Positions 10,690-36,744 of a DNA stretch of 44,533 nt are shown here, piece after piece (within the stretch, counting starts at the first letter, position 1; the number at the start of each line of letters is the position of its first letter). Position numbers and translations under genes: made by a program. This stretch comes from a virus. Below the pieces are notes generated by a model. It did no database searches, was not told the DNA's origin, and worked only from the letters and a program-made list of their open reading frames with translations. The stretch lies in IMG/VR virus record IMGVR_UViG_3300014039_000008, one strand, 5' to 3'.

Positions 10690-10693
10690 GGCG

Positions 10694-11014: not shown

Positions 11015-11027
11015 GGAGGGGAAAACC

Positions 11028-13972: not shown

Positions 13973-14006
13973 GCGAGAGCAAGTAAGTAAAGAAAGGGGC
14001 AGGGAA

Positions 14007-15503
14007 ATGGACGACAAGGCACTGCAGGCTGCGCTGTGGTACAAGCAGCTGTGCGAGACCAACAACGACGTTTTCCTGCCCCTGTTTTTCGACCATCATC
14101 GCCACCTGATCCTGATGGGCGGCGGCGGCAGCGGGAAATCGATCTTTGCGGGCAGGAAGGTGCTGGAGCGCTGCGCGACGGAGCCGGGGCACAGAATGCT
14201 CGTGGTGCGCAAGGTCGCCAAGACGCTGCGCGAGAGCTGCTTTGACCAGCTCAAGACGCAGGCCATGCAGTACTACGGACCGGCAATCAAGATGATCCCG
14301 CGCGGGAAGAGCGGAGATATGTACATCACGTTCTACAACGGGAGCGAGATCTTATTTGCCGGGCTGGACGACGTCGAAAAGCTCAAATCCATCCACGATA
14401 TCTCCGGCATCTGGATCGAGGAGGCGAGCGAGCTGCTGGAGGGAGACTTTAATCAGCTGGACATCCGTCTTCGCGGCGAGAGCAAGTATTACAAGCAGAT
14501 CATCATCTCGTTTAACCCGATCAGCATTACGCACTGGCTCAAAAAGCGTTTTTTCGACGCGGCGGACGACCGCGTCGTGACGAGCCGGACAACGTACAAG
14601 GACAACCGTTTCCTCCCGCAGGAGGACCGGCTGACGCTGGAGGCGTTCCGCGAGACCGACCCGTATTACTATCAGGTTTACTGCCTCGGGCAGTGGGGCG
14701 TACTGAGCCAGACGATCTTCCGGCGCGACATCCTGATGGAGCGGCTGCTGCACTGCAAAAAGCCGATCCGGCGCGGGAGATTTGCCTACCGATACGACGA
14801 GACTGCGATCACGGACGCCGCGTTTACGGGCGCCGAAGACGGCGAAACGCTCGTCTGGGAGGAGCCGCAGGCGGGACACCCTTACGTCATCGGCGCAGAT
14901 ACGGCGGGCGAAGGATCGGACTGGTTTGTCGCATGCGTTATCGACAACAGCACGGGGCGGCTCGTGGCCAAGTACCGGGCGCGGACCGACGAGGATCTGT
15001 TTGCCCGCGAGGTCTGGTGCCTCGGCATGTGGTACAATCAGGCGCTCGTGGGCGTCGAGGCCAATTTTTCCACGCACCCGATCAAGGAGCTTTCGCGGCT
15101 GCGGTATCCGCGGCAGTTTGTGCGGCAGGTCGAGGACAGCCTGACGCATGTTGTGCGCGAGGCGCTCGGCTTTAAGACAGACCGGCTGACGCGGCCGGTC
15201 ATCATCGCGGAGCTGCAGGGGATCATGCGTGAGCATCCGGAGCTGATCGACGATGAGGACTGCCTTAACGAGATGCTGACCTTCGCCCGCAACAGCAAGG
15301 GACGGCCGGAGGCGGTCGAGGGCGCGCACGACGACTGCGTGATGGCGCTGGCGATCACCTACTACGTGCGCCAGCAGCAGCGGGCGACCGTGGAGACACG
15401 GCACAAGCGCGCCAGATGGGACAAGGATCAATGGGAGGACTACAGATCGGCCGACGCCACAGAGCGGGCCTATCTGATCAGCAAATGGGGCAACCCGTTT
15501 TGA
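14007..15503 (+). CDS. terL: terminase large subunit
   Basis: Walker A LILMGGGGSGKS. IWIEEASE is Walker B-like. The C-terminal nuclease part contains VIGADTAGEGSD. 498 aa. Confidence 0.9.
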   Translation: MDDKALQAALWYKQLCETNNDVFLPLFFDHHRHLILMGGGGSGKSIFAGRKVLERCATEPGHRMLVVRKVAKTLRESCFDQLKTQAMQYYGPAIKMIPRGKSGDMYITFYNGSEILFAGLDDVEKLKSIHDISGIWIEEASELLEGDFNQLDIRLRGESKYYKQIIISFNPISITHWLKKRFFDAADDRVVTSRTTYKDNRFLPQEDRLTLEAFRETDPYYYQVYCLGQWGVLSQTIFRRDILMERLLHCKKPIRRGRFAYRYDETAITDAAFTGAEDGETLVWEEPQAGHPYVIGADTAGEGSDWFVACVIDNSTGRLVAKYRARTDEDLFAREVWCLGMWYNQALVGVEANFSTHPIKELSRLRYPRQFVRQVEDSLTHVVREALGFKTDRLTRPVIIAELQGIMREHPELIDDEDCLNEMLTFARNSKGRPEAVEGAHDDCVMALAITYYVRQQQRATVETRHKRARWDKDQWEDYRSADATERAYLISKWGNPF

Positions 15504-23800: not shown

Positions 23801-26800
23801 TCGACTATGCAGAAGCATACGACGGCATTTACGGCGAGTTTACCGAGGACATGACGGAGGAGCAGGAAAATGAGCTTGCGATCCGGTACATGGAGGAAGT
23901 TTTCGCGGATGCCTACGCTGGCATCCGCCGAGGGCAGCGCCGTATCCGCTCCGCGCAGAAGACGCTGGAGGCCAGCGGGGAGATCGAGACGCTCCGGGCA
24001 AGAGGCCAGACGGCACAGAATGCGCAGGAGGAGCAGAGCGGGAAACTGTCTATTGCAGATGGACTGCTCGACAAACTTCGGCGCGTAGCAGAAAACAGGT
24101 ATCGAGGAGCTGACGAAATCTATATCGGGGAAACATCGGACTTTTTGACGCGGGAGATCGGTGTCGACGCGGCAAAGGTCACAATGCCTGCGAGCAAAGC
24201 GTACGCCGCAATGGTGACTGCAGAGCAGGCAAAGGTGGATAACCGATACGACAAGAACATAAATTACCACGGGCTCGGGGCAGAGGGGATGCTCGAAATC
24301 CTCGAAAAATCGGAAAACCCTGTTGCGGCATTCGTTTCAAAACCTGGAGAAAAAGGAAGTCGGCTGAATCGACTGGTGCTCGTAACCGACCAAGAGATCA
24401 ACGGCGGGAACGCGGTGGTCGTAGAGGAAATTGAGGCCCAAGGTAGACTGAAGGGGAAAAAACTAAAGGTAAATAAAGTCATAACCGCATATGAACGTGA
24501 GCGTGCGGCGCAAGATGTGCAGGACGCACAAATAGACGGCAGGCTGCTATACCTAGACAAAAAAAGAAGCCAGAGCTTAAATGCTGGGAGGCCGGGGTCC
24601 AATTCCCCGGTGGCCATGCAAAGCTCTGACTTCCAGACCAATATACAAAACTTTCTCGCAGATGTCAAGTGGGAATCCGGGGAATACGATAAAAAAGTTT
24701 CTGGAAGCGGACCGGTCGAGAGCGATATCGCAGCAGCGTTCAGAAAATCTTTAGAGAAGAAGACAAGCTTCTCAGTATCGGGCGACCAGAATGGGCAGGA
24801 CGGGCGGGGAAAACAGAGATTTTCGCTGTCTGAGCCGGTGGAGCGCGCTGGGAACCTGATTGCGGAGCACAACCTGACGCAGGAGAAGCTGGAGAAGGCG
24901 CTGGAGATCGGCGCGTTTCCGTCGCCGTCCATCGCTATCGTGCAGGCCGAGCAGGGGCATACAAACTACGGAGACTATTCCGTCGTGTTCCCAGCGTCGA
25001 CGATCGACCCCGAGGCGGACAGCCGGAACCGCGTATATGGCGCGGACGCATGGACGCCGACCTCGTCCAACGCGACCGTGGAGTACCGTGTGGATGCGGA
25101 TGCAAAGCGGGCGTTCGAGCGCAGCATCCGGGACCTGTCGGGGCAGGTAGCAGACGGGATTTTCCGTGGAGACAGTACGCTCGGCAAGGCCGGGATCGAA
25201 GAGGAAACGACCAAGACAAGCCGGGAAATCGCGGAGCAGATCGCGCAGTATCCGGAGGTCAAGGCGGCTTATCTTGCGGATAAAGGCGAGAATATCAGTC
25301 CTGTCTACAAGGACAGAGAGTACGACAATATTGGGAATGCGGCGCTGCAGCGGTATACGGACAACGTCGGCGCACAGGACCTTGCATGGATCATTGCGCA
25401 GATGGACATGGGGGATGCGCAAAGCGTGGCACAGGCAGAGCTGCAGCGCGTGCGGCAGGCGATCGGGGAGGAATATGCAGAGCGGTTTGCAAGGATCCTC
25501 GACCGGAGGCCGGAACGCAAGGCGGAGCGCGTCAGTGAGTACGCAGAAAACAAAATGTACAGCAGCATGCGGGCAGAGGACTTTATCAGGCATGCGTGGG
25601 AGATGGTACAGGACGGAGGCCGGAACAGCGGCGAAGCGGACAAAATGGCCATGCAGGACGAGCTTGACCGAAAAGCGCCGGTGCAGGACGTGGCGGCGTG
25701 GGCAGAAAAGCGGCTGCAGGATGTGATCGGCGAGGGCGGGATCTACAACAATGAGGATCGCTATACAAGCCGAGGCGACCGCAGGAGTTTTGACCAGACC
25801 CACTGGGAGCTGAACGCGGAGAACCTCGTCCGGGCTATGGCACAGGCGGAGGAACGCGGCGCAAACATCATGTGGTATGATGCCGGTGGCCTGCTGGCAG
25901 CGGCGACGCCGGAGTACCGGAGCATCAGCGAGATCCATGCCGACGAGGGGCGGCTGCAGACGTTGGAGCAGGAGGCCTACGAGGGGAAAGTGATGAAGCT
26001 GCAGCAAAGCCTTGACAACGTGGTCGAGCGCATCCTGCAGGAGACAAAGCACAAAGCATATGGGTATCAGGATGAGAGCCAGCTTATCACGGAAGCGCTG
26101 ATCAAGACCGCACAGGGCGGCGACAGCCTGCAAAGCATCCGCGAGGGGATGGCAGCGGAAGAATACGACATTGACCGTGCGACGGCAATGCGGGTTCAGG
26201 AGCTGTTTCAGCAGGCGAAGGAGATTCCTACCTCGTACTTCGAGGCCAAGCCGCAGCGGGTAGTAAGCTTTGATGAGGCGGTCGCGCTGTTGGCCCCGGA
26301 AAGCGCTCCGGCGAGTCTGATGGCAAGAGCAGAGGACGCGGGCCTGCGCGTGATCCGGTACACGGACGACGCAGACAGGATCCGCGTTGCAAACGAACTG
26401 CCGGGCGTGAAATTCTCCGTGCAGGAGGAGCAGGATGCTGGGGAGAGCCAGAAGCAAGACACGCAGAAAGACCTCGGAGAGATGAACCGGCAGGTGCAGG
26501 GGGCGGAGGCTGCGATGCGCAGCGACGCACTCAAGGCACAGGCGGACGCCGAGCTGCAGGAGTACCTGAAAAAGGGAAAGAGCGAGCTGGCACAGTCCAT
26601 CAGCAAGATGAGCGACGCAGCGCTGAAAAAGCAGACCGAGCGGGTCAAACAGGCCATGACGGCAGAGTCGGAGGGCCTGCGCATCAACGAGGCCGCCGAG
26701 GCTGTGACAGAGGGCGTGCAGAAGTACGCGGAGAGCCGCAACCAGCGCCTCGGCGATATGCTGCAGATGATCAAGGCCGAGCAGAACAAGCGCGCAGCGG

Positions 26801-29800
26801 AAAAGCGAGAGGCCGAAAAGCAGCGACGTGCAGAGGCCCGGAAGACGCCGGAAGCGAAGCTACAGCGCCAGATCGACAAGCTGCAGAAGCAGATTGACAT
26901 TGAGCGTGCGGCGCTCCGGCAGGCGAAGCAGGGCGGGACGCTCACCAGCGAGATGGCCGAGCAGAGCGAGGAACGCATCACGGGCCTCCGGCAGGAGATC
27001 CTCGATTACAAAAACGAGCTGCAGGAGAAGAAGACCGCCGCCCGCGAAGAGAAAAAGCGCCAGCAGGATCAGGCAGCCAAAGAGGCGATCCTGAAGGAGA
27101 AGCCCCGTCAGGCCACGAGAGACCTGACGAACGCGCTGATCGAGAGCTTTAACGTCCCGGAGGCAAACCGCACCCAAGCGACGATCCAGATTCGCGAGCT
27201 TGCGGAGCAGGCCTATCAGGAGGGGCAGAAAGGCCCCATCACGAACGAGCTGCGAAACAAGATGCTCGATACGCTGATCGAGCTGGGGACGGAGCGGGAG
27301 ATGCTCGACAACCGGGAAAGCGAGATCAGCCAGCGGCTGCGCGAAAAGTGGATCCAGGTGCCGGACGAGGTACGGACCGCGTTCGGCGAGGAGTGGGCCG
27401 ACATCAAGGAAAGCGCGTATGACAGCGGCATCTATTTTACCTACAAGGACGGATACCGCAGCATCCAGAGCTGGACGGCCGAACTGCAGAAGGAATTTGG
27501 CCAGATGTTTGATACGACCCGCAGCCCGCAGCAGCAGCTGCGCGACATCGTGAATCTGGCGTCGGAAGGCTACGGGAAGCAGATGACCATCGGCGACATG
27601 CTCCGGCAGAATGCGGACGACTACAGCTGGAGCATGCGCGAGAAGGTCGAGGAGCTCGGGAAGGTGCTGGACGACCAGCTGCAGCGGTTTGGTGAAAAGG
27701 CAAACATCGAGGTCAAGCTCGCGGCCCGGTCGGCGAAGTCCCTGCAGGCGCAGCAGCAGTATTTTGAGAACCGGCTGCGCAGCCGGACGGAGCAGCAGAT
27801 GGAGAGCCTCGCAAGAGAGAAGCTCCTCAAGAGCGCAAAGCAGCTGCGCCGCATGGCAAACAAGTCGTCTGCGGAGCAGCGGGCCGCGATCCAGAAAGTC
27901 ATCGGGAACATCGATCTTGTGGCAAGGAGCATCACGCCGGACGGGATCGAAAACCTGCAGGAGCTTGCACTGAGCTACCGGCAAGCAATGGAAGCCATGG
28001 GCGAGAATTTTATCCGCGACAAGGACGTGGAGGACCGGCTGGCAAGGCTGGGCAAAAAGCGCATCGCCGAAATGGATGACATGGACGAGGTGCGGCAGCT
28101 TGCGCAGGACATCACGGCCGTGGCCACACAGATCCGGAATCAGAACCAGATGCTCGCGACTGTGCGCCGCGAAACGGTATCAGAAATGGCCGAGAACGTC
28201 CGCAAGGAAGTGAAGGCCGCGAAGGGCAGCAACGCAGGAAAGGCAAGAGATTTCGTGCTGATGCAGACCGACGCGAAGCGTTTCTTCCTCGAACTCGGCG
28301 GTTGGAAGGAAGACGGCGCGACAGCCGAGCTGCTGCACGGGCTGGAGCGAGGCGAGGAGAAGCGCCGCCTGTACGAAATGCGAGCGCAGGGCCTCTTTAA
28401 CGGGTTCCTCGCGGACAAGGCCAACAAGAAATGGGTCGAGAGCGCGACCGGGAAGGACGCACAGTGGATCACGGTCGACACGCCGCGCGGCGCGTCCGTC
28501 ATCAAGGACGGAACGGCGAGCGCGATCAGCGAGCTGACCATGACCCCGATGATGCGCGTCTCCCTGATCATGCACAGCAAAAACGAGGACAACCTGCGGC
28601 ACATCGCCGAGGGCGGCATGCGCGTGCCGAACCGGGCGCTCTACAAGAAGGGCAACATCTCGGAGGCGTATGCGCGCGGAGACGTTGTGACACTGACGCC
28701 GCAGGCCGTGCGGGACATCGTGCGCGGGGCAACGGCGCAGGAGATCCAATTTGCCGCGATCCTGAGCAAGTATTTTGACGGGCAGGCCAAGAATGCGATT
28801 AACGAGGTATCCATGGTCATGGATGGCTATGAGAAGGCCATGGTCAAGAACTATTTCCCGATCGAGTCCGACCGCGCGTTTACCGTGCAGGACAATGACC
28901 AGGTGCGCAACGACATTTCGCTGACCGGGCTCGGGTTTTTGAAACAGCGTACCGGGAAGGGTGCGAACCCCGTGCTGCTGCAGGATGCCTCGCAGACGTT
29001 CCAGAGGAGCGTGGAATCCGTCAGCAAATACTACGGATTAGCACTGCCGATCCGCGACCTGAACGCCATCATGAACAGCACCTACTATGAGAACGCCGGA
29101 AAGGTGCGGCTTTCGCAGACGGACAAGTTGCTCGGACGCGACCGCAGCAAGGAGGGCGGCGGCGCGATCCGCACGCAGAGCGCAGAAAGCGTGCGGAATG
29201 TGATCGCCGGGAAGTGGGGCAAAAGCTCCATCAACTACATCGAAAAGCTCGTCGGAGACCTCCAGCGCAGCGGGAAGGACATGGACGCGTTCTCCGGGTT
29301 CTTCGGATGGCTGCGCGGGCAGTATGCGAGCGCGGTGATCTCTTTCAACCCGAGCTCGATGCTCAAGCAGTGGGGCAGCTATGCAACGGCCATGGCGTAT
29401 CTCAGCCCCGGCGATCTCGCAGCGGGCCTGCTGCGGGGCATGAAGGGCAAGGTCAGCACAGACACGCTCGGACAGTACAGCTCCGTCTACTGGTACCGCA
29501 ATCAGGGCAACGCGACGCAGGAACTGCACGACCTGACCACGAACGAGGCACTTGTGACAAAGCTGCCGCTTGGCTACAACTGGGCGCAGGCGATGGACAG
29601 CTTTATCACGCGCCGCCTGATGCTGGCATGTGAGCGAAACGTGAGCCGCACAACAGGCCTGACGCCGGGCACGTCCGAGGAGATCAACAGCGGGACGGAT
29701 GCCTACTGGACGAAGGTCGCGACGCTGTTCAACAAAGTTGTGCTGGACACGCAGTCCAACTCGAGCATTCTGGAGCGTGCGGCCGTAGCACGAGCGAATC

Positions 29801-31923
29801 CGAACAACATCAGCCGATTTATGACGATGTTCCGCGCGGACGCTTTCCAGAGTTTCAACCTGCTCCGTGAGGGGCAAGGCAAGTACCAGAGTGCGCGAGA
29901 GGCCTACCTGCAGAACAAGACGGCTGAGAACCGCAGAGCGATGATCGCAGCGCGGAAGCAGCTGGCAAGGTCCGGCGCGGCTGTGATCGCATCGCAGTTT
30001 GTGTCCGCCTCCATCAGCGTCATGATCAATGCGCTGCGGCGGAGAGATGAGCTGTGGGACGAGGACGGCCTGAACTGGGGCGAGGTCATGAAGCAGCTGG
30101 GGCTCGGCATGGTAGAGGGACTCGCGGGCATCTCCATCGCCGGTGAGGAGCTTGTGGGTCTTGTGGAGTCCATCGCCTTTGATGAGACGTGGTACGGGCC
30201 TGACGTCAACGCACTGCAGCTGCTGACCGACACGGCCGAGAGCGCGATCAGCGCGGCGAAGATCCTCAAAAACGGCAAATGGGAGCTTGCGCCCGGTGCG
30301 CTGAAGGATCTGGCGCTGGAGGCATCCACGGTCATGGGCCTGCCGCTCAAAAACGTCGAAAAGTATGTGCAGGTCCTGCCGAGATGGGTCGCGCCGGAGC
30401 TCATGGCAGAGTACGACAACATCTGGGACGAGGTCGACCGGAACGCGCTCTCCAAGTCGTCCGTGCTGGACATCAAGGCGGACATCGGCGTGCTGCTCGA
30501 CAACCGCACCGATGACATGAGCGACGAGGACAAGGAGGAACTGACAAGGCTCTACCTTGCAGGAGGGACCGGAGCGCTCCCGGCAGCCGTGCCGAACTCC
30601 GTCAAGTACAACAACGACAGCGGAGAGGAAGTGACGGTACAGCTCGACTACAGCCAGAAGCAGACGTACAAGAAGGAGTGGAGCAAGATCGTCTCCGGAG
30701 CGATCGGGGCACTGCTGAAGTCTGACCTCTACAACGAGGCGGACGACAAGACCAAGACAAAGATGCTCAATAACCTGTATACCTATGCAAACGGGCTTTC
30801 TGCCGAGAAGGTCGTGCCGGAGAAGGCGGCTGACGGGTGGATCGACGACGCCAGAACGATCAGCGGAGAGGGCGTCAAGATCGCGGATTATATCCAGTGG
30901 CACACGATGCTCAGCGAGATGGATTCCGACGACGCGAGCGGTACCGGCAGGACGGGCCTGAAAAATGCCCGCGCGATGGAGCTGGCGAACGAAAAGGGAT
31001 GGACGTGGGCCGTCCCGTCGGGTGCACCGGACGAGCTCAAATGGATGGAGGACGATACAGAGCAGACACTGCAGCTCACGGATGCGCAGAAGAAGCAGTA
31101 CCGCAAGACATGGACCGGGATCGTATACGGGAGCGTCGGTGACCTGATGCAGTCCGACGAGTACCAGAGCGGGAGCGAGAAGGAGCGCGGCGCGCTCATC
31201 CAGAAGCTGACGTCCTATGCATCCGCGCTGGCGGCCTATGAGATCGAGCCGAAAAAGGAGCCGGACACATGGATCCTCGGCGGGCAGCAGGCCGTGAAAG
31301 ACGGCGTGCCGCTGGACGAGTACATCGTTTTCCGCGCGCTCTACAGCGAACTGGACAGCATCAACGAGGACGGCGACGAGGAGAGCGGTCTGAAAAACAA
31401 GCGGACGCTGGATCTCATCGAGTCCATGGGATGGAGCGACCAGGCAGAGCAGAGCGCCTATATCAACACCGTGGCCTCGGAGAGCAAGGCCGCTGAGGCG
31501 GAGGCACTGCAAAAAGCCGGAATGACGTGGGAGCAGGCGAATGATGTGCTGGCCGTGCCGGGTACGGGTGTTGCAAAGAAAGTGGCTGTCACGGCGACAA
31601 ACGCGAGCGAGGCGGCCAAGGCGAAGGTCCTTGCGAGCTACGACAAGAGCGAGAAGCAGAAGACTGCAAAGCTCGTCATGACCGGCCTGAAATACGGCAT
31701 CCCGATGCGGCGCTACACGGACGTGCTGCAGAACGCAGACGCGGACGGCAGCGGCGGCGTCTCGCAGGAGGAGGCCGGGAAGTACATCGCGACGCTGGGC
31801 CTCAGCGTACAGGAGGCGGCGTACCTCTGGCAGATGGTCACGAACGGGAAGGAAGGCAAGAAAAACCCGTTCTCCAGCTATTTCGGTTCGGAGTTTTACA
31901 GCGCCGCAGGAGCGTTTGACTGA
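20863..31923 (+). CDS. giant multidomain protein (3,686 aa), polyvalent or ejection-protein-like
   Basis: Uninterrupted 11,061-nt ORF with a GAGGAGG RBS. HEDFH at aa 945-949. Hydrophobic G/A/S-rich region, long coiled coil and tandem C-terminal modules. Confidence 0.85.
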   Translation: MPRDAMAEWLAKRNAEKAAQRATPEHGAVRQAQIKVDQILEQAKKTVTELPGVKAGKTAKSSTPVRQEEGRDAMAEWLAARKESKVQQIAEQGMYTVRNAKTLGVAVANTRAEYQKAHKKAARHVAVNTTAPLAMAEAARYQAKFLSGRSVDKVQREYDTTRERAEEYRQKALRLRETGDAQREASSTAAIGKDREDETRFGSSLTRSADQWDKLAQEESSKALELARELGYAKVYQVQELEENAAMDPQFAQKAQARQDILALGAEESRASQSKANVIYGEINGSEYYVTEDPATEKMTETERRTFTYLYNTKGAAAAEEYYNMLNDTLELRRGEDIAAGMGGTAKKTLFSLGMGVRRFGRGIEQLFNDEQLPLYGEDYAENIINASASHGERILYSAANSIGNMLPMVAISAATQGIGGAVGLSAEAAQAAGKAAGVASMFAGAKGNAYTEAMQQGMTKAQASTYSTLVGASEAGLEYLIGGISQFSMGSGIGDFVQEAISGLGRGYARVAFRFAGSLIGGSIDEIIEENTQNYLEPLFINYVTGKEAEMPGWDEFIETTLSTLITTGVMESRNSFVEAKQNIAFTPFEAQLEWVSAAKNVFAEGTDVAEFADVLESRLQAGDPMSYKEFREGIRALGVDEKTMDRIAKGKLTVDEVLTSAENGDKISLKEWQAEQNSTAQQEQSQTQRAETVQTENDNIETAMTAAEQEADRLIAEWNRGENSSYELGQQAQRVMQQLEEEVREGTATDPGSYINRQLQLQEIVRSAPEASTAQQATQNTTERIDNNGRTEILNDSEERNAGLGAGEQAGAVAEGAGGPVAGGAGTQTQNGRADLSGGREAVSAREIGVKGGTTEKNIHVVIPAEIDTTQAADAAIVEKMNRIVTEAAAKGQDVTFVSGALTVESGGRTVRVEGVRQTGDNGRTQIFLQVDGRRDMERIYRHEDFHDAVEAQPGLLQRLADRLMQEYGREEMLRMAIDYAEAYDGIYGEFTEDMTEEQENELAIRYMEEVFADAYAGIRRGQRRIRSAQKTLEASGEIETLRARGQTAQNAQEEQSGKLSIADGLLDKLRRVAENRYRGADEIYIGETSDFLTREIGVDAAKVTMPASKAYAAMVTAEQAKVDNRYDKNINYHGLGAEGMLEILEKSENPVAAFVSKPGEKGSRLNRLVLVTDQEINGGNAVVVEEIEAQGRLKGKKLKVNKVITAYERERAAQDVQDAQIDGRLLYLDKKRSQSLNAGRPGSNSPVAMQSSDFQTNIQNFLADVKWESGEYDKKVSGSGPVESDIAAAFRKSLEKKTSFSVSGDQNGQDGRGKQRFSLSEPVERAGNLIAEHNLTQEKLEKALEIGAFPSPSIAIVQAEQGHTNYGDYSVVFPASTIDPEADSRNRVYGADAWTPTSSNATVEYRVDADAKRAFERSIRDLSGQVADGIFRGDSTLGKAGIEEETTKTSREIAEQIAQYPEVKAAYLADKGENISPVYKDREYDNIGNAALQRYTDNVGAQDLAWIIAQMDMGDAQSVAQAELQRVRQAIGEEYAERFARILDRRPERKAERVSEYAENKMYSSMRAEDFIRHAWEMVQDGGRNSGEADKMAMQDELDRKAPVQDVAAWAEKRLQDVIGEGGIYNNEDRYTSRGDRRSFDQTHWELNAENLVRAMAQAEERGANIMWYDAGGLLAAATPEYRSISEIHADEGRLQTLEQEAYEGKVMKLQQSLDNVVERILQETKHKAYGYQDESQLITEALIKTAQGGDSLQSIREGMAAEEYDIDRATAMRVQELFQQAKEIPTSYFEAKPQRVVSFDEAVALLAPESAPASLMARAEDAGLRVIRYTDDADRIRVANELPGVKFSVQEEQDAGESQKQDTQKDLGEMNRQVQGAEAAMRSDALKAQADAELQEYLKKGKSELAQSISKMSDAALKKQTERVKQAMTAESEGLRINEAAEAVTEGVQKYAESRNQRLGDMLQMIKAEQNKRAAEKREAEKQRRAEARKTPEAKLQRQIDKLQKQIDIERAALRQAKQGGTLTSEMAEQSEERITGLRQEILDYKNELQEKKTAAREEKKRQQDQAAKEAILKEKPRQATRDLTNALIESFNVPEANRTQATIQIRELAEQAYQEGQKGPITNELRNKMLDTLIELGTEREMLDNRESEISQRLREKWIQVPDEVRTAFGEEWADIKESAYDSGIYFTYKDGYRSIQSWTAELQKEFGQMFDTTRSPQQQLRDIVNLASEGYGKQMTIGDMLRQNADDYSWSMREKVEELGKVLDDQLQRFGEKANIEVKLAARSAKSLQAQQQYFENRLRSRTEQQMESLAREKLLKSAKQLRRMANKSSAEQRAAIQKVIGNIDLVARSITPDGIENLQELALSYRQAMEAMGENFIRDKDVEDRLARLGKKRIAEMDDMDEVRQLAQDITAVATQIRNQNQMLATVRRETVSEMAENVRKEVKAAKGSNAGKARDFVLMQTDAKRFFLELGGWKEDGATAELLHGLERGEEKRRLYEMRAQGLFNGFLADKANKKWVESATGKDAQWITVDTPRGASVIKDGTASAISELTMTPMMRVSLIMHSKNEDNLRHIAEGGMRVPNRALYKKGNISEAYARGDVVTLTPQAVRDIVRGATAQEIQFAAILSKYFDGQAKNAINEVSMVMDGYEKAMVKNYFPIESDRAFTVQDNDQVRNDISLTGLGFLKQRTGKGANPVLLQDASQTFQRSVESVSKYYGLALPIRDLNAIMNSTYYENAGKVRLSQTDKLLGRDRSKEGGGAIRTQSAESVRNVIAGKWGKSSINYIEKLVGDLQRSGKDMDAFSGFFGWLRGQYASAVISFNPSSMLKQWGSYATAMAYLSPGDLAAGLLRGMKGKVSTDTLGQYSSVYWYRNQGNATQELHDLTTNEALVTKLPLGYNWAQAMDSFITRRLMLACERNVSRTTGLTPGTSEEINSGTDAYWTKVATLFNKVVLDTQSNSSILERAAVARANPNNISRFMTMFRADAFQSFNLLREGQGKYQSAREAYLQNKTAENRRAMIAARKQLARSGAAVIASQFVSASISVMINALRRRDELWDEDGLNWGEVMKQLGLGMVEGLAGISIAGEELVGLVESIAFDETWYGPDVNALQLLTDTAESAISAAKILKNGKWELAPGALKDLALEASTVMGLPLKNVEKYVQVLPRWVAPELMAEYDNIWDEVDRNALSKSSVLDIKADIGVLLDNRTDDMSDEDKEELTRLYLAGGTGALPAAVPNSVKYNNDSGEEVTVQLDYSQKQTYKKEWSKIVSGAIGALLKSDLYNEADDKTKTKMLNNLYTYANGLSAEKVVPEKAADGWIDDARTISGEGVKIADYIQWHTMLSEMDSDDASGTGRTGLKNARAMELANEKGWTWAVPSGAPDELKWMEDDTEQTLQLTDAQKKQYRKTWTGIVYGSVGDLMQSDEYQSGSEKERGALIQKLTSYASALAAYEIEPKKEPDTWILGGQQAVKDGVPLDEYIVFRALYSELDSINEDGDEESGLKNKRTLDLIESMGWSDQAEQSAYINTVASESKAAEAEALQKAGMTWEQANDVLAVPGTGVAKKVAVTATNASEAAKAKVLASYDKSEKQKTAKLVMTGLKYGIPMRRYTDVLQNADADGSGGVSQEEAGKYIATLGLSVQEAAYLWQMVTNGKEGKKNPFSSYFGSEFYSAAGAFD
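23231..23419 (+). CDS. nested ORF (62 codons) in the +1 frame inside the giant gene
   Basis: ATG 9 nt after GAAAGGA. Hand-counted GC3 is 49/62 (79%) in this frame versus 27/63 (43%) in the giant frame over the same span. The product is K/E/Q-rich and protein-like. Confidence 0.4.
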   Translation: MAERKFLMTARNGMQVWVPESKLEQWQKAQEDQSPEAQERRRKTAERILAAVERLSAQGKSE

Positions 31924-31943
31924 AAACAAAATACCGCACAGCG

Positions 31944-31972
31944 GGGGAGGGCGAAAGCCCTCTCCCATTTTT
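31944..31972 (+). terminator. intrinsic terminator after the giant gene
   Basis: 9-bp G/C stem with one bulge, GAAA loop, followed by ATTTTTA. Confidence 0.7.
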
Positions 31973-31992
31973 ATGCACAGGAGGGGGAACAT

Positions 31993-32292
31993 ATGTCGAA
32001 GGGCAGGATGCAGGCCGGGAGCTGCACGGCAGGGATGCGGCGCGAGGAGGTCGAGGCGCTCATCCGGGCGGCAAATCTCGGGGAGGAGGACAGCTACATC
32101 GCGCGGCGCTGTCTGATCGATCAGGTGGCGCAGCTGGACATTGCGTATGAGATGGAGGACAAATTTGGGCAGGGGATGACGCGGAGCACGGTATCCCGCC
32201 GGATGCAGGGGATCGAGCGGCGGCTGCACACATTGCGCGCACAGACGCGCCGGAAGCGGGCACAGCGCAGGAGCCGAAGCGGTATGATATAG
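31993..32292 (+). CDS. small HTH protein resembling sigma-70 region 4 (99 aa); first gene of the cargo island
   Basis: ATG after AGGAGGGGG. Contains GMTRSTVSRRMQGIERRL and a basic tail. Confidence 0.6.
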   Translation: MSKGRMQAGSCTAGMRREEVEALIRAANLGEEDSYIARRCLIDQVAQLDIAYEMEDKFGQGMTRSTVSRRMQGIERRLHTLRAQTRRKRAQRRSRSGMI

Positions 32293-32317
32293 CCATCAAA
32301 GACAGGAGGCGGAGACA

Positions 32318-32707
32318 ATGGCATATCCATACCAGAACGGATACAATCAGGTGATGCCGCCGGTATACGGCGGGTACGGACAGCAGCCGATGCAGCCGCA
32401 GGGGCCGATGTGCCGGATGGTGTCGAGCCGCGAGGAGGCCAGCTCGACGCCAGTGGACTTTTCCGGCAGCCTGATGGTATTTGCGGACGTCCAAAACAAC
32501 CGCATCTACACCAAGCGCTGGGACGCTGCGGCGGGCGCTGCACGCTTTGGTGAGTACATTCCAGCACCGCCTCCGCAGCCCGCGCAGAGCGGCGCACAGA
32601 GCGCGACAGACCCGGTGCTGACAATGCTGCAGCAGATGCAGGAGCAGCTAAACGGGATCAGCGAGCGGCTTACGGCTGCCGAGAAAAAGGAGGGACCGGC
32701 AGAATGA
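32318..32707 (+). CDS. protein with a Q/P/G/Y-rich N-terminus (129 aa)
   Basis: ATG after AGGAGGCGGAG. Starts MAYPYQNGYNQVMPPVYGGYGQQPMQPQGP. Confidence 0.65.
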   Translation: MAYPYQNGYNQVMPPVYGGYGQQPMQPQGPMCRMVSSREEASSTPVDFSGSLMVFADVQNNRIYTKRWDAAAGAARFGEYIPAPPPQPAQSGAQSATDPVLTMLQQMQEQLNGISERLTAAEKKEGPAE

Positions 32708-32925
32708 ATCCGCTCATGATGATGATCCAGATGGCGCAGCGGGGCCGGAACCCGCTGGGCGCCCTGCAGCAGATGGGCGCAGGTCCGCAGCTCCAGCAGA
32801 TGCAGCAGATGCTGGCGGGCAAAGATTACAACCAGCTCCTCCAGATGGCGGACAACGCCGCGCGGGAGCGCGGTACGACGGTAGAGCAGATGGCACAGCA
32901 GCTGGGGCTGCCCTTCCGCCGATAA
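32704..32925 (+). CDS. Met/Gln-rich small protein (73 aa)
   Basis: ATGA overlap with the upstream stop. Starts MNPLMMMIQMAQRG and contains QLQQMQQMLAG. Confidence 0.6.
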   Translation: MNPLMMMIQMAQRGRNPLGALQQMGAGPQLQQMQQMLAGKDYNQLLQMADNAARERGTTVEQMAQQLGLPFRR

Positions 32926-33026
32926 GCACATCCACTCGGTTTGCGGATCCTGACAAAAGCCGCGCAGCAAGGACTCACCGGGCGCGCGCGGCCCGTGGGA
33001 TCATAAAAACTGAGGAGGATATAACA

Positions 33027-33821
33027 ATGGCAGATGATTTTGGCATGGGGTACGCGCTGGGCGCTGACTCCGGCAACCGCAACAACAACGACATGTTCGG
33101 GTGCGGCGGCTCGTGGTGGATTGTGATTATCCTGTTTGCCCTGATCTTTGGCAACAACTGGGGCAACAACGGAAACAACGGGGCCGGTATGGCGGTGCCG
33201 TATCTCAGCGGCATCGACACGCGGCAGGCAGTCAACGACGGCTTTGTGACGGCAGAGATCCAGAGCGGCATCCGCGGGCTCCAGAACGGCCTGTGCGACG
33301 GTTTCTATGCCATGAACACCGGAATGCTCAACGGACAGATCGCGATGCAGCAGGGCTTTAACGCCACGCAGATGGGCATGATGCAGGGCTTTAACGGCGT
33401 GCAGAGCCAGATCTGCGACCTCGGAGCGAGACAGCAGCAGTGCTGCTGCGAGACGCAGCGCCTGATGGAGCGCGGCTTTGCCGACACCAACTACAACCTC
33501 GCGACGCAGAGCTGCGACATCCGCAACACCATCCAGAGCACGGCCCGCGACGTGATCGACAACGCAAACGCCAACACGCGCAGCATCCTGGACTTTATGG
33601 TCAACGACAAGATCAGCACGCTCCAGCAGGAGAATCAGACGCTCCGTCTGGCCGCCTCGCAGAGCGAGCAGAACGCTGTGCTCAAGGCTGCGATGGACGC
33701 CAACACGGCCGAGCTGATCCGCCGGACCGGCAACTCGACGCCGCAGCCGACGTACCTCGTGCAGAATCCCCATGCGGCGTACTACGGCAACGGCTGCCAG
33801 CAGGGCTACGGCTGCTGCTGA
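33027..33821 (+). CDS. membrane-anchored, Cys-rich coiled-coil protein (264 aa)
   Basis: G/N-rich N-terminus with the TM segment SWWIVIILFALIFG. Contains QQCCCETQ. C-terminus is GCQQGYGCC. RBS GAGGAGG. Confidence 0.7.
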   Translation: MADDFGMGYALGADSGNRNNNDMFGCGGSWWIVIILFALIFGNNWGNNGNNGAGMAVPYLSGIDTRQAVNDGFVTAEIQSGIRGLQNGLCDGFYAMNTGMLNGQIAMQQGFNATQMGMMQGFNGVQSQICDLGARQQQCCCETQRLMERGFADTNYNLATQSCDIRNTIQSTARDVIDNANANTRSILDFMVNDKISTLQQENQTLRLAASQSEQNAVLKAAMDANTAELIRRTGNSTPQPTYLVQNPHAAYYGNGCQQGYGCC

Positions 33822-33875
33822 CGGAATGAGAGATCGGGGCGGCAGCTGCCGCCCCTGAGCAAAGGAGGATATACC

Positions 33876-34262
33876 ATGGCATGCAACAACGTGTGTAAGC
33901 TGTGCCGCCGCCTTGTGATCTCGCAGGCCGTGACGTTTGCGGACGGCGTGCTGACGATCAACCTGCCGGCCGGGAGCTACAACGACGGCGAGAAATACTG
34001 TCTTGTCGTGGCGCAGACGATCCCGACGGCGGCGACCATCACGGCCCAGGTCGTGGTGACGATCGGCAGCGGGACGGTGCAGTATCCGCTGACAAGCAGC
34101 GGCTGCGCGCAGCTGACCGCCTGCGCGATCCGCACGCGGACAAAGTACAGCACGGTGCTCAACACCACCGCGACGGGCGGCAGCTTCCGGCTGCTGGGCC
34201 GCGCGGCCTGCGCGCCGAACAACAACCTGACGAGTGTCAACGGCACGGCACCGACGGCGTAA
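33876..34262 (+). CDS. beta-rich protein with an N-terminal Cys cluster (128 aa, 7 Cys)
   Basis: Starts MACNNVCKLCRR. Further Cys residues in the body. RBS AAAGGAGG. Confidence 0.65.
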   Translation: MACNNVCKLCRRLVISQAVTFADGVLTINLPAGSYNDGEKYCLVVAQTIPTAATITAQVVVTIGSGTVQYPLTSSGCAQLTACAIRTRTKYSTVLNTTATGGSFRLLGRAACAPNNNLTSVNGTAPTA

Positions 34263-34273
34263 GGAGGGACGAT

Positions 34274-34852
34274 ATGGACGCCAGGACAAAAATGATGTTC
34301 TACCGCCGCGGGAGCGGCGAGGAGGAACGCAGAGACCGGCCGGAGGGCCGATTCCGCGACGGGCGCGGACGCGAGCGCTACAATGACGGCCGCTATGCAC
34401 CGCGCAGCGACGGAGACTATGATCGCCGATACCGCGACGAGCCGATGGGCCGCCGGTACAACATCGAGCCGAGAGGCGGCGGACGCAGCCGCGAGCCGGG
34501 GCGCCGAGAGATGGGGCATATCGGATTCGAGCAGCAGCAGGACGATGACGACCGTCTGTCGTGGGAGGAGGCCGAGCAGTGGGTCGGCGGCATGAAAAAC
34601 GCCGACGGAACGGTCGGCGCGAAGTGGGCACCGGACCATGTGCTCAAGATGATGCACGAGCGCGGCATTGCCTGCGACCCGATCGAATTCTGGTGCGCAA
34701 TGAATGCGGTGTACAGCGATTTTTGCGAGGTACTCATGGACCACGGCTGCACCGGGACGGACCTCTACCTCGACCTCGCTAAGGCGTGGCTCGAGGACAA
34801 GGACGCCGTGCCGGACAAGGCACGCGTGTATTACGAGTGCATCGTGGAGTGA
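34274..34852 (+). CDS. protein with an R/D/E/G-rich disordered N-terminal half and a Cys-containing globular C-terminal half (192 aa)
   Basis: ATG 34274 after AAGGAGGG, in the frame of track ORF 33902..34852. Confidence 0.65.
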   Translation: MDARTKMMFYRRGSGEEERRDRPEGRFRDGRGRERYNDGRYAPRSDGDYDRRYRDEPMGRRYNIEPRGGGRSREPGRREMGHIGFEQQQDDDDRLSWEEAEQWVGGMKNADGTVGAKWAPDHVLKMMHERGIACDPIEFWCAMNAVYSDFCEVLMDHGCTGTDLYLDLAKAWLEDKDAVPDKARVYYECIVE

Positions 34853-34863
34853 CACAAAAACAA

Positions 34864-34891
34864 CCCCGGCAGGAGACTGCCGGGGTCTTTT
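34864..34891 (+). terminator. intrinsic terminator ending the cargo island
   Basis: 9-bp stem CCCCGGCAG / CTGCCGGGG, GAGA loop, then TCTTTT. Confidence 0.85.
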
Positions 34892-34894
34892 GCG

Positions 34895-35152
34895 CACCGA
34901 ATGAGCACCGAGAGTTTTGAAGATTTGAAAATTGAGGTCGGAGAAAGTCGGAGTTTGAGCAATGTAAAGAGAGAAAATGAGAAGCGTTGAGAGGCAGTGA
35001 TAGGAAGAGAAAGAAAGATGGATAGAAAGTGTAGTTCTTCAAGATACTCGCTAATAGAGTGTAGAAAAACGGTGGAACCATTGAAAACTCAATGGTTCCA
35101 CCGTTTTTGAAGATGGCACATAAAGAAAAGGACACCGAAAAAGCACCGAAAA
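34895..35152. other. putative attP region (AT-rich, non-coding, next to the integrase 3' end)
   Basis: Low GC. Short direct repeats: TTTTGAAGAT x2, GCACCGA x2 plus one ACACCGA variant, GTCGGAG x2, AGTGTAG x2. No ORF. Confidence 0.4.
35065..35108. terminator. bidirectional intrinsic terminator
   Basis: Perfect 18-bp stem AAAAACGGTGGAACCATT / AATGGTTCCACCGTTTTT with A and T tails on either side. Confidence 0.85.
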
Positions 35153-36307
35153 TCACGTGTTAGTCGGAGGCGAGAGCTGGACGGCGTCCAGGATGGTGAT
35201 CGCGCGCTCCTCCTCTCGGGGGTAAAGGTGGGCATAGGTATTCCATGTGATTTGGACGTTGGAGTGGCCGAGGCGGCGCGCGACCTCCTGTATGTTGATG
35301 CCATTGTTAATGAGCAGGGAGGCGTGGGAGTGACGGTAAGCATGGAGGCGTATATTGGGGAGCCCAGCAGAGGCAGAATAGGAAAAATTGCGCTCTCGAA
35401 GGGCGGTGAAGCCGAGATGGGCAGGGCCACCGCAGACGAGGAAGTCCGGCGAGAAGCCGGGCATACCGCGCTGGAAGCGGAGGTGTGCCTGCAGTTCCTC
35501 GAAAAGGGGAACCGGGATGCCAATATCGCGGACAGAGGACTCCGTTTTTACCGGGCCCTCCCCAAACCGATCGGAGTAAGTGCGGCGGATGCGGATCAGG
35601 CGGGCCGGGAGATCGATATCCGTCCAGTGCAGGGCGAGGACTTCGCCGGGCCGCATGCCGGTATAAAATGCGACGACGAAAAACATCATGTATTGCCGCT
35701 CTTGGATGGGATTTTTTGCGGCGGAAACGGCGGCTGCTGCCGATGTGTAAAAACGCTGAAATTGCTCTGCGGTATAGAATTGGAAATCGTGCTGCGGGGC
35801 GGACGGCATGGATTTGCGCTGACGGCGGAGCCGCCCGAAGGGGGATACTGTGATGATGCGGAGTTCGACGGCTCGGGCAAACATGGACTTTACGCTTTTG
35901 TACACTTCGGAGATCGTACCGGGTGCGAGGCCCTTGCCGTGGAGAGACGAGACCCAATCGGAGACGTGGCGCGGGGTTACAGCACTCATACGGAGCGGCC
36001 CGAAAAATGGGGCGGCGTGGGCGCGAAGGCGGGACTCGAGCGCGGTGAGGGACGACGCACGGACCTCGGTGGACCGGTACGTGATAAACTGCGGGATAAA
36101 CTCGGCGACGGTGAGGCGGTCATCGGCGGTGGGGGCGGGGGATTTGGCCTCGGCGCTGAGCTGGCGCTCCATATCGGCGGCCTCGGCCTTGCCGTAGACG
36201 ATACGCTCGATGCGGCGGTAGGCCCCGGTATCGGGGTCGGTATAATTGACGCGGACGCGATAGCCCTGCAGGCCGTCGCGCTTTTTTTGGATCTTTGTGA
36301 CAGGCAT
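35153..36307 (-). CDS. int: tyrosine recombinase / phage integrase (384 aa)
   Basis: Start MPVTKIQKK 8 nt after AGGAG. Catalytic signature present: YTGMRPGE, HAYRHSHA, LGHSNVQITWNTYAHL. Confidence 0.9.
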   Translation of the reverse strand: MPVTKIQKKRDGLQGYRVRVNYTDPDTGAYRRIERIVYGKAEAADMERQLSAEAKSPAPTADDRLTVAEFIPQFITYRSTEVRASSLTALESRLRAHAAPFFGPLRMSAVTPRHVSDWVSSLHGKGLAPGTISEVYKSVKSMFARAVELRIITVSPFGRLRRQRKSMPSAPQHDFQFYTAEQFQRFYTSAAAAVSAAKNPIQERQYMMFFVVAFYTGMRPGEVLALHWTDIDLPARLIRIRRTYSDRFGEGPVKTESSVRDIGIPVPLFEELQAHLRFQRGMPGFSPDFLVCGGPAHLGFTALRERNFSYSASAGLPNIRLHAYRHSHASLLINNGINIQEVARRLGHSNVQITWNTYAHLYPREEERAITILDAVQLSPPTNT

Positions 36308-36330
36308 AGCAGACTCTCCTTGGGGCGGGC

Positions 36331-36744
36331 TCAGCCGCGAAGCCAGCCGATATTTGGGCTGAGAGCGTCGATGATCAGCAAAAAGACAACGACGGCGACG
36401 AGGCTGGTGGCGATGATGGCAAGCAGCCGCATCCAGCGCGCGCGAAAAGCTGCGAGGCGCTCGAGGAATGCGATGCGGGCGTCCTTTTCCGCGAGCAGCG
36501 CCTCGCAGGTAAGGGCAGCGGGTGTGTCCTCCGGCGGCGGGAACAGGTCGGGGAGTACATCGGACATCGGGACCTCGGCTGCGGCGACGAGGTCGATGAC
36601 CGTCTGGAGGCCGGGGTTTTCGGTCCCGCCGGAGAGGATGCGGGAGATCGTGCTGATGGGGACGCCGGAGCGATCCGCCCACGCGGCGAGGGTGAGGCCG
36701 GACTTTTGCTTGACGGCATTGAGCCGGTCACAGATTTGTGTCAT
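36331..36744 (-). CDS. XRE-family HTH regulator with a C-terminal transmembrane anchor (137 aa)
   Basis: ATG 36744 after AGGAGG. HTH is LTLAAWADRSGVPISTISRILSG. C-terminal TM is LLAIIATSLVAVVVFLLII. Confidence 0.75.
   Translation of the reverse strand: MTQICDRLNAVKQKSGLTLAAWADRSGVPISTISRILSGGTENPGLQTVIDLVAAAEVPMSDVLPDLFPPPEDTPAALTCEALLAEKDARIAFLERLAAFRARWMRLLAIIATSLVAVVVFLLIIDALSPNIGWLRG

Follow-up and report, generated by a model that had tools for sequence, protein, structure and literature searches.

Record IMGVR_UViG_3300014039_000008 of the IMG/VR database, a stretch of 44,533 nt that we analysed in full and refer to here as the window, is a complete-length temperate phage genome (~44.5 kb, high GC). 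A block of six small genes, which we call g1 to g6, occupies positions 31944-34891, between a giant polyvalent gene and the integrase gene (Table 1). Our analyses indicate that this block is one instance of a strictly ordered cassette that recurs in hundreds of phage and prophage loci from Oscillospirales and their relatives, that the g3-g4 junction contains a structured RNA predicted to restrain the translation of g4, and that the cassette may act at the host envelope at the end of infection. A first-pass annotation of the window had instead described the block as a self-contained, terminator-bounded island of lysogenic-conversion or defence cargo beside the phage attachment site attP, headed by its own sigma-region-4-like regulator and encoding proteins reminiscent of spore coat or exosporium components.

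Table 1. Features of the six-gene cassette and of the DNA that borders it (positions in the window; aa, amino acids).
Feature	Position	Strand	Remarks
g1	31993-32292	+	99 aa; pN/pS 0.06; first gene of the cassette
g2	32318-32707	+	129 aa
g3	32704-32925	+	73 aa; pN/pS 0.03
Leader RNA	32932-33018	+	g3-g4 spacer, ~90 nt; z -4.9
Leader helix P1	32932-32942 with 33007-33018	+	outer helix; runs into the g4 Shine-Dalgarno sequence GGAGG (33014-33018)
Leader hairpin P2	GCGG 32943-32946 with CCGC 32960-32963	+	near-invariant loop (C)CTGACAAAA
g4	33027-33821	+	264 aa; anchor gene of the cassette
g4-g5 spacer hairpin	33836-33855	+	(C)GGGGCGGC-AGCU-GCCGCCCC(UGA), GC; no U-run in the window
g5	33876-34262	+	128 aa
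g6	34274-34852	+	192 aa
Upstream intrinsic terminator	hairpin 31943-31966, tail to 31972	+	followed by AUUUUUAU; dG -23.3, z -3.2
Downstream terminator hairpin	34862-34887	both	stem 10-11 bp, z -6.4; between the convergent g6 and integrase genes
attP region	34888-35152		low GC (0.47-0.50), purine-rich; context, outside the cassette
Giant polyvalent gene	20863-31923	+	3686 aa; MuF_C and PBECR5 (nuclease-like) domains; directly after the portal region
Tyrosine integrase gene	35153-36682	-	

All six + strand open reading frames (ORFs), which the first-pass annotation had delimited correctly, carry strong Shine-Dalgarno (SD) sequences. Among 11-22 distinct alleles from close relatives, synonymous differences far exceed non-synonymous ones (pN/pS, the ratio of non-synonymous to synonymous polymorphism, 0.03-0.16), and all six are therefore functional genes under purifying selection. 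The spacing of the genes is conserved as well. In particular, g2 and g3 overlap (-4 nt) and g5 and g6 overlap or abut (-4 to +11 nt), which indicates translational coupling within each pair, and spacers of ~128, 96 and 63 nt precede g2, g4 and g5, respectively.

We ran per-gene iterative hidden Markov models over every ORF of 166 fetched loci (numbered here with the prefix L). The order g1-g2-g3-g4-g5-g6 was the commonest architecture among them and the remaining architectures were its subsets or truncations; the block does co-occur as a unit, one of the points that the first-pass annotation had proposed to check. GenBank has g4 homologues in 28 phage records, among them those of Butyrivibrio phage Ceridwen, several lemur/rodent gut phages and one crAss-like phage, and IMG/VR has them in 205 stretches. 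When one genome was scanned for each GTDB species, g5 turned up in at least 80 contigs, mostly of Oscillospirales. Anaerotruncus colihominis DSM 17241 (cassette at ~1.676-1.680 Mb of NZ_CP102255), Flintibacter muris, Muriventricola aceti, Acutalibacter and Agathobaculum are among the cultured carriers, and no g5 homologue was found in plasmids. Contigs with the cassette are variously labelled sipho-, myo-, podo- and crAss-like. Among close relatives of the window its presence appears fixed: a search anchored on the upstream terminator returned 25 IMG/VR relatives, all of which (25/25) carry it, and a search for cassette-less relatives with the C-terminus of the giant gene returned only near-identical phages. 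Absence from close relatives, which the first-pass annotation had proposed to test for, was thus not seen.

Searches of Pfam, PHROGs, NCBIfam and PADLOC with the six products returned nothing beyond phrog_16490 for g4 and DUF7841 for g6, both families of unknown function. The earlier statement that the five products after g1 match nothing that can be named therefore stands for g2, g3 and g5 and needs amending for g4 and g6. No enzymatic or defence domain was found in any of the six, and none (0/6) matches a PADLOC-DB model at E < 0.01. Likewise, Pfam and NCBIfam models of coat proteins, exosporium proteins, endospore appendages (ENA; DUF3992 and DUF4183) and YjcZ gave no match to g2-g6 beyond noise, PDB sequences gave no match, or coiled-coil noise only, to the family profiles of g2, g4, g5 and g6, and literature searches (DUF7841; YjcZ; BclA with prophage; Oscillospiraceae prophage clusters) yielded nothing on the cassette. 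The unusual compositions noted by the first-pass annotation are real, namely a Q/P/G/Y-rich region in g2, Met and Gln in g3, a transmembrane (TM) segment, CCC motif and Cys-containing end in g4, a Cys cluster in g5 and an R/D/E/G-rich half in g6.

The g1 family comprises stand-alone helix-turn-helix (HTH) proteins of 60-100 aa whose alignment shows the pattern of sigma-70 region 4 and LuxR(GerE) proteins. Among 42 members, 18 match Sigma70_r4_2, 15 match GerE and 13 match Sigma70_r4, with an occasional match to DUF1492, and the positional homologues of g1 in L081 and L084 also carry sigma-70 region 4/GerE-type domains. In size and in profile matches the family thus resembles GerE and the small sigma-like proteins of the DUF1492 type found in phages. 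Unlike these, g1 of the window is too divergent for a direct Pfam match (none at E <= 1), and its assignment as an HTH protein rests on the family; the sigma-region-4-like regulator proposed at the head of the block is upheld at that level and not by the window's own protein. The second product, g2, consists of an N-terminal, P/Q/Y/G-rich stretch of 30 residues, a conserved domain of ~55 aa (consensus R.V.S.EEA.A..DF.G....PD...G.IY.K) and a C-terminal helix, and its family, which numbers 2355 clusters, has neither a Pfam match nor fusions. Its coupled partner, g3, is helical and 33% Met plus Gln, with repeated NPxxMQ-like motifs.

The g4 product is a single-pass membrane protein and contains the sole TM-grade segment of the cassette (residues 23-41; KD hydropathy 2.14). 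A Gly/Asn-rich N-terminus leads into a long helical region that is rich in Q and N and contains a conserved CCC (139-141); the C-terminal tail, GCxxGxGCC, is Cys-rich, with C257, C263 and C264. The match to phrog_16490 is nearly full-length (E 9.4e-54; residues 13-263 against 17-279 of the 286 profile positions), no match was found to holin, spanin or XhlA profiles, and PDB searches with the g4 family gave coiled-coil noise alone.

The g5 product is the best conserved of the cassette, being 60-80% identical where g4 is only 35-50% identical. Its family contains more than 4000 clusters at 90% identity, without a Pfam match, and 355 representatives at 50% identity. An AlphaFold2 (AF2) model built from a diverse alignment is an eight-stranded beta-sandwich with a flexible N-terminal arm that contains the cysteines C3-x3-C7-x2-C10; the model reached a mean confidence (pLDDT) of 82.7, as against 41 with a shallow alignment. 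A Foldseek search of BFVD aligned this model with knobs at the C-termini of tail-fibre and collagen-repeat proteins (E 1e-5 to 4e-3, TMq 0.45-0.55). The same search of the PDB returned nothing significant, the top match being the tail-fibre chain of Pseudomonas phage Pa193 (E 0.07, TMq 0.44), and C1q, BclA and ENA structures were not among its matches. At the sequence level g5 has no Pfam match at E <= 1, BclA_C, DUF3992 and DUF4183 included, and no PDB match. We considered that g5 might mimic the tip of this phage's own collagen-like fibre and rejected the idea, there being no sequence similarity; a diverged BclA_C or C1q domain was rejected as well, since hhalign gave a probability of only 0.1% for the g5 family against the BclA_C-like proteins found at the same position in other cassettes (described below). 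Long members of the g5 family were set aside as sources of informative fusions because they look like chimeric assemblies. The BFVD entry A0A8S5LXP6, a 294-aa 'DUF7841 domain-containing protein' of crAss-like virus sp. ctRQZ5, aligns structurally with the g5 model over 89 columns (TMq 0.58, root-mean-square deviation 2.0); if genuine, it would be a fusion of g5 and g6 and would argue for physical contact between the two.

In g6, residues 1-95 are 69% R/D/E/G/Y and disordered, with the motif RFRDxRGRExYxDGRxAP, and the C-terminal half is a helical DUF7841 domain (residues 79-188; score 82.5 bits, cut-off 25.2; E 3.4e-23) in which three Cys are conserved. What chiefly varies among relatives of g6 is the length of the disordered, RGG/Met/Glu-rich region that surrounds a conserved motif, RFRDRRGREHYDNGRFAP, and the long members of the family that we examined as possible fusions merely have longer disordered regions. 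Neither g5 nor g6 has a signal peptide.

The spacer between g3 and g4 contains a conserved RNA structure in which the outer helix, P1, pairs with the SD sequence of g4. The leader is also present in L088-L163, and we judged conserved boxes and compensatory changes on 24-76 distinct leaders. Boxes that are near-invariant even in divergent cassettes are TCAG(TTT), the loop (U)CUUGAnAAAA, GGGAGCGYRCGGCCC and UGyrAAUAAA. P1 has a median length of 12 bp, and among 76 distinct leaders at least two Watson-Crick pair types occur at eight positions of P1 and at every position of P2. In a partner-shuffle test, permutations as good as the native pairing arose in 0/5000 cases for P1 and in 32/5000 for P2, and G·U pairs are common in the helices, which favours an RNA structure over a DNA palindrome. 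Since RNAalifold found only 3 pairs in a plain MAFFT alignment, owing to register shifts, these results come from an anchored duplex analysis and not from a covariance model. On inspection of the sequences, the centre of the leader contains two GC-rich hairpins that look mutually exclusive and show compensatory changes. The box (C)TTGAC(A)AAAA, the only conserved DNA or RNA box nearby, resembles a -35 element, but it lies in the loop of the covarying hairpin and lacks a -10 partner.

The leader is specific to this junction. The pattern of its 5' half occurs in at least 120 IMG/VR contigs (L180-L299); a g4-family ORF starts right after it in 97 of the 98 contigs with sufficient downstream sequence, and a g3-family ORF ends just before it in 107 of 113 matches. 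In other lineages a distinct hairpin occupies the spacer and it, too, pairs with the g4 SD sequence. The leader has features in common with riboswitches, protein-binding leaders and RNA thermometers, namely an outer helix on the SD sequence, near-invariant loops and seemingly exclusive central helices; it differs from known leaders that occlude the SD sequence in its restriction to one gene junction and in having no match in Rfam 15 (4227 families; E <= 1; window and five divergent loci). As judged from conservation and pairing, g4 synthesis is thus predicted to be gated specifically at translation by the leader, which we regard as a candidate for a new class of cis-regulatory RNA.

A second conserved RNA element, a hairpin, lies between g4 and g5. 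Its sequence is kept between cassettes whose proteins are only 40-60% identical (for example L034, L085, L122, L137 and L140), 90% of 78 distinct g4-g5 spacers have z < -2, and in some loci a T-run follows. These features suggest that the hairpin is probably an mRNA stabiliser or attenuator, one that may set the ratio of g4 to g5.

Not every cassette contains g5. In Dulem virus 35, Ceridwen, L039, L057, L068 and L069-79, the gene after g4 encodes instead a Cys-containing jelly-roll protein of ~140 aa (phrog_20016) with a sub-threshold match to BclA_C; for Dulem virus 35, the match has an E value of 4e-7 and scores 30.3 bits, under the cut-off of 38. This protein has no detectable relation to g5, and the fifth position therefore appears to be an exchangeable 'knob' site. 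The sub-threshold match is a hint of exosporium-like parts, as foreseen by the first-pass annotation, in the variants. Other genes of the variant cassettes belong to phrog_21718 (at the position of g2), phrog_22984 (g3) and phrog_28802 (an R/D/S/Y-rich sixth protein), all of unknown function, and PHROGs gives no structural annotation to these families or to phrog_16490.

The positions at which the cassette is found are diverse and coincide with the boundaries of phage modules. Among 73 distinct upstream neighbours, ~27 (~37%) are endolysin genes, and the others are capsid, minor-capsid, terminase or giant polyvalent genes. The 88 distinct downstream neighbours include 21 tyrosine integrases, 10 serine recombinases and at least 12 host housekeeping genes, and the cassette sits at a prophage end in about half of these 88 contexts. 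Portal/MuF-type or giant polyvalent genes precede it in the window, in L084, in Dulem virus 35 and in bajarodcaudo virus 2, and three lineages have it within a block of head genes. In temperate Dulem virus 35 it is located between a MuF-like gene and the scaffold and major capsid protein (MCP) genes, 18 kb from the integrase, with an XhlA-like gene and a small TM gene just before g1 despite this location in the head block. Bajarodcaudo virus 2 (complete, 30.7 kb, no annotated integrase) has it between portal/MuF-like and scaffold/MCP genes, and the 79-kb phages of the L038 type have it after the major head protein gene. In L081 and Ceridwen, g1 overlaps or adjoins small genes of the holin region. 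Position beside attP, although confirmed for the window, is accordingly not supported as a special property of the cassette. As a side observation, the cassette is the last phage block before a transfer-messenger RNA (tmRNA) gene in L119 (7346-7711, - strand) and before a tRNA gene in L140 (7433-7505, - strand); tmRNA and tRNA genes are classic prophage attachment sites.

The first-pass annotation had treated the block as a separately regulated unit expressed from the prophage. Both terminators on which it had based this view exist, the upstream one being a good + strand terminator and the downstream one stronger. However, only 20 nt separate the upstream terminator, which follows the 3686-aa polyvalent gene, from the start of g1, and no sigma-70-like promoter was found in this gap. 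Nor was one (>=10/12 positions) found within 250 nt upstream of g1 in any of 55 distinct loci (0/55), in a scan that was confined to sigma-70-type consensus sequences and would miss promoters of the sigma-E/sigma-K type. The upstream terminator is a lineage-specific feature and not a general trait of the cassette, for it is present in the 25 close relatives, but just 6 of 55 other loci have a terminator before g1. In many loci g1 adjoins or overlaps the late gene that comes before it. (An Rfam match to 'Clostridiales-2' over the upstream terminator was dismissed, at 20.9 bits against a cut-off of 58.6.) The downstream hairpin has only CUUUUG as its + strand tail and GUUUUUGUGU on the - strand; the better U-run on the - strand makes it a bidirectional terminator for g6 and the integrase gene. 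The arrangement of genes therefore argues that the cassette normally continues a late operon and inserts at module boundaries, that is, after MuF/MCP genes, after lysis genes or at the prophage end. Indeed, the layout in relatives suggests that transcription might occur only as read-through of the late operon, an outcome that the first-pass annotation had itself named as contradicting its reading.

The cassette does not fit any known system. Comparison with lysis proteins, BclA/ENA fibres, coat proteins, defence systems, morons and Rfam families gave, in every case, a negative or incomplete result for a feature that defines the class, and the only applicable labels are phrog_16490, DUF7841 and the generic sigma-4/LuxR class of HTH proteins. 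The explanation that we tentatively favour, as the likeliest single one though short of probable, is that the cassette forms a module, expressed late and gated at translation, whose products act at the host envelope as infection ends. This explanation starts from the reality, collinearity and distribution of the genes, the fold class of g5, the family of g1, the leader and its specificity, and the positional statistics, and from these we infer when the genes are expressed, which products bind one another, how g4 is oriented and what role lysis or the envelope plays. Late expression is favoured because promoters were not detected in any of the 55 loci, g1 abuts late genes and the cassette occurs in head blocks; the products look like assembly parts because enzymes are absent and a single membrane anchor, a single knob, coupled pairs and low-complexity regions are present; and a role in lysis or at the envelope fits because holin, XhlA and endolysin neighbours recur and the leader sequesters the ribosome-binding site (RBS). 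Gating of the RBS by RNA structure is known for holins and membrane toxins, as in lambda S (sdi) and hok-type mRNAs.

According to this explanation, g1-g6 would be a mobile, strictly collinear late-gene cassette of gut Clostridia phages. Its transcription would come mainly from the late operon, of which it forms the last part, and its products would build a non-enzymatic protein assembly centred on g4. The g4 product would be a membrane-active coiled-coil 'stalk', synthesis of which is restrained by pairing of the ~90-nt leader with the RBS. The g5 knob (the BclA_C-like protein in variants) and its coupled partner g6 would dock on g4 at its Cys-rich tip, g2 and g3, likewise coupled (Tyr/Gln/Pro-rich and Met/Gln-rich), would serve as assembly helpers or scaffold, and g1 would provide control at the DNA level. 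Late in the lytic cycle the assembly would then act on the host envelope, either as an accessory to lysis and release or by altering the membrane or surface of the dying cell, and its function would not be a trait expressed in the lysogen.

We compared g4 with gated membrane and lysis proteins, namely lambda S (sdi), the class III holin T of T4 (one transmembrane domain, a large C-terminal domain and RI/RIII partners) and XhlA-type Bacillus proteins. Like these, g4 is single-pass with a large, Cys-containing C-terminal domain, appears to be made late, is often encoded next to holin, XhlA or endolysin genes and has its RBS sequestered by RNA. Unlike members of the holin, spanin and XhlA families, it is longer and dominated by coiled coil, and it lacks sequence or profile similarity to them; and unlike known lysis cassettes, the unit contains five more conserved genes, while the window phage and L081 have canonical holins of their own.

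Several observations weigh against the explanation that we favour. The window contains a complete lysis cassette 22 kb away (endolysin gene 9634-10689, XhlA-like gene and holin gene), to which g1-g6 are not adjacent and which implies that they are not needed for basic lysis. A good terminator before g1 in the window lineage means that read-through would be required. Since g5 and g6 have no signal peptides, they would not meet the large domain of g4 before lysis if g4 is oriented N-in/C-out. A role associated with the head would account just as well for the many cassettes that come after portal/MuF or MCP genes, a module devoted purely to structure or lysis has no obvious need of an HTH protein, and the promoter negative extends to the sigma-70-type consensus only.

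Something else altogether, for example a membrane-tethered condensate or factory, we regard as a real if lesser chance. The main rival among the explicit alternatives, unlikely in our estimation, is that the cassette is a virion accessory module, specifying either a capsid-associated head fibre or decoration, with g4 as stalk and g5 as knob, or internal proteins ejected with the MuF/polyvalent protein; in the latter case the hydrophobic, Gly-rich segment of g4 would enter the host membrane during DNA entry. The location of the cassette after portal, MuF, giant polyvalent or MCP genes in the phages named above accords with this, as do its expression with the late genes (judged from genomic layout) and the likeness of g5 to the knobs of tail and collagen fibres. 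Signal peptides would not be expected of parts that assemble in the cytoplasm, and disordered low-complexity proteins would be suited to passage through a tail channel. However, one and the same cassette occurs across sipho-, myo-, podo- and crAss-like contigs, the contexts after an endolysin gene lie outside structural blocks, structural genes are not usually accompanied by an HTH protein and by an RNA leader for the gating of a single gene, and the PHROGs involved have no structural annotation.

Less probable still is a phage-made supramolecular structure in which a membrane-anchored g4 stalk under riboswitch-like control bears an exchangeable knob (g5 or the BclA_C-like protein) within a Cys-cross-linked, Tyr/Gln- and Arg/Asp/Tyr-rich low-complexity matrix of g2, g3 and g6 that self-assembles or phase-separates. 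If true, tailed phages of gut Clostridia would make a layer or fibre system of the coat/exosporium kind that is built on the host membrane or on spores, or that surrounds virions after release, together with a new class of cis-regulatory RNA. The parts do recall phage fibres and BclA or collagen-like exosporium filaments with their C1q/TNF-like knobs, in that a helical or fibrous component (g4) is followed by a small beta-sandwich knob (g5). In BclA and phage fibres, however, stalk and knob are not separate polypeptides as they are here, and the g4 stalk is TM-anchored and lacks collagen repeats. The Cys-rich termini of g4 and g5 recall the Cys-mediated coupling of ENA and L-BclA subunits (PMC12357932), and to ENA subunits themselves (DUF3992; DUF4183 in F-ENA) g5 is similar only in its Cys-rich N-terminal arm (PMC12357932).

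The first-pass annotation's own proposal, that the prophage expresses the cassette as a lysogenic-conversion island and so alters the envelope or spore surface, now seems improbable. In the form weighed here, coat- or exosporium-like proteins under a GerE-like regulator would assemble in the mother-cell cytoplasm. The proposal draws on the prophage-end position in about half of the contexts, the GerE/LuxR type of g1, the BclA_C-like knob of variant cassettes and the many hosts among the Oscillospirales, an order with many spore formers; moreover, compositions rich in Cys, Tyr, Gln and Arg/Asp, together with the absence of signal peptides, resemble those of coat proteins, and sigma-E/sigma-K promoters were outside the reach of the scan. 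Like morons and conversion cassettes (gtrABC; toxin genes downstream of the lysis modules of Gram-positive prophages), the unit has no recognisable replication, packaging or tail function, has moved as a unit between unrelated phages, is often the last before attR or the integrase and is flanked by terminators in the window. Unlike morons, it has no detected promoter of its own, is contiguous with late genes, lies in head operons far from att sites and in a phage without an annotated integrase, is fixed in the close relatives and has the same GC as the remainder of the phage. Searches of Pfam, NCBIfam, PDB sequences and, with Foldseek, PDB structures gave no match in favour of the proposed kinship with spore coat, exosporium, ENA (DUF3992/DUF4183) or YjcZ proteins, no relation of g5 to the BclA_C-like proteins was detected, and a variant cassette is carried by a phage of Butyrivibrio, which does not sporulate.

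Just as doubtful is a system for superinfection exclusion, anti-phage defence or competition, in which g4 and the g5 knob would mask receptors, block DNA entry or, once released at lysis, act on neighbouring cells. Exclusion genes are often found as morons at the ends of prophages, g4 is predicted to lie in the membrane, g5 has a fold like that of receptor-binding tips, the knob type is swapped between variants and tight translational control suggests a toxic product, but there is no PADLOC match (which also leaves the earlier suggestion of defence cargo without backing), the high conservation of g5 relative to g4 is the opposite of what a receptor-binding surface would lead one to expect, g5 is unlike this phage's own collagen-like fibre and six collinear genes are atypical of exclusion systems.

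The cassette is common in prophages of Oscillospirales and related gut Clostridia, bacteria that abound in human and animal guts, and Pfam, NCBIfam, PHROGs, PADLOC and the PDB assign a function to none of its six proteins. That the unit keeps its order while moving among sipho-, myo-, podo- and crAss-like genomes argues that it must confer a general benefit that phage biology has not named. What is new here is an abundant, strictly organised cassette with a candidate regulatory RNA specific to one junction, and the findings do not so far imply an unprecedented biological activity. They do provide handles, namely the predicted pairs g2/g3 and g5/g6, a confident fold for g5 and the leader, and the cassette can be approached in cultured hosts (A. 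colihominis DSM 17241, F. muris and M. aceti) and in Butyrivibrio phage Ceridwen. For annotation, it follows that position or composition alone is no ground for the labels tail, spore coat or defence.

Elsewhere in the window, the + strand contains a collagen-repeat fibre gene, a gene for a metallophosphatase/Big_2 protein and the gene for the Amidase_2+SH3 endolysin (9634-10689), and 3' of the lysis genes lie the MCP gene, TerL, an SU10-like portal gene and the giant polyvalent gene. The lysis cassette as a whole spans 9634-11228 (+ strand) and encodes the endolysin, an XhlA-like protein of 106 aa, a coiled coil with a C-terminal TM segment, and a small holin. This late-gene order (fibre, lysis, head, packaging, giant protein) is unusual in that the lysis genes lie upstream of the head and packaging genes. 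The 3686-aa polyvalent product is presumably a packaged and ejected multi-effector protein; in relatives the equivalent giant gene encodes LPD3, LPD23 or LPD38 domains. Near-identical genomes of 43.7-44.9 kb are frequent in IMG/VR, one of them on a contig of an Oscillospiraceae metagenome-assembled genome (L087), and the window's g6 allele occurs in 677 blocks of an assembly index, on contigs of up to 456 kb.

The integrated copies L176 and L178 match the window up to ~35036 and continue into host ABC-transporter genes, which places attP directly after the cassette, as the first-pass annotation had supposed, with the crossover at ~35036, ~185 nt beyond the last cassette gene. The host ABC-transporter genes that flank this coordinate belong to two different sets in L176 and L178, which implies two integration sites or two host species. 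The DNA that runs from the bidirectional terminator to the crossover (34890-35036) is purine-rich and 47-50% GC and contains repeated GAGAAAG/GGAGTTTGA-like words, which may be arm-type binding sites for the integrase.

Two loci in relatives are of separate note. In L038, a reverse transcriptase gene (13428-14657; phrog_1423) lies ~4 kb downstream of the cassette, after a gene for a 708-aa phrog_17147 protein, and is probably part of a diversity-generating retroelement. In L081/L082, a 52-kb phage with a g1-g5 cassette, AcrIC5 and weak AcrVA2-like Pfam matches occur at 13158-14792 (- strand), by the integrase/repressor region, and likely mark an anti-CRISPR locus apart from the cassette.

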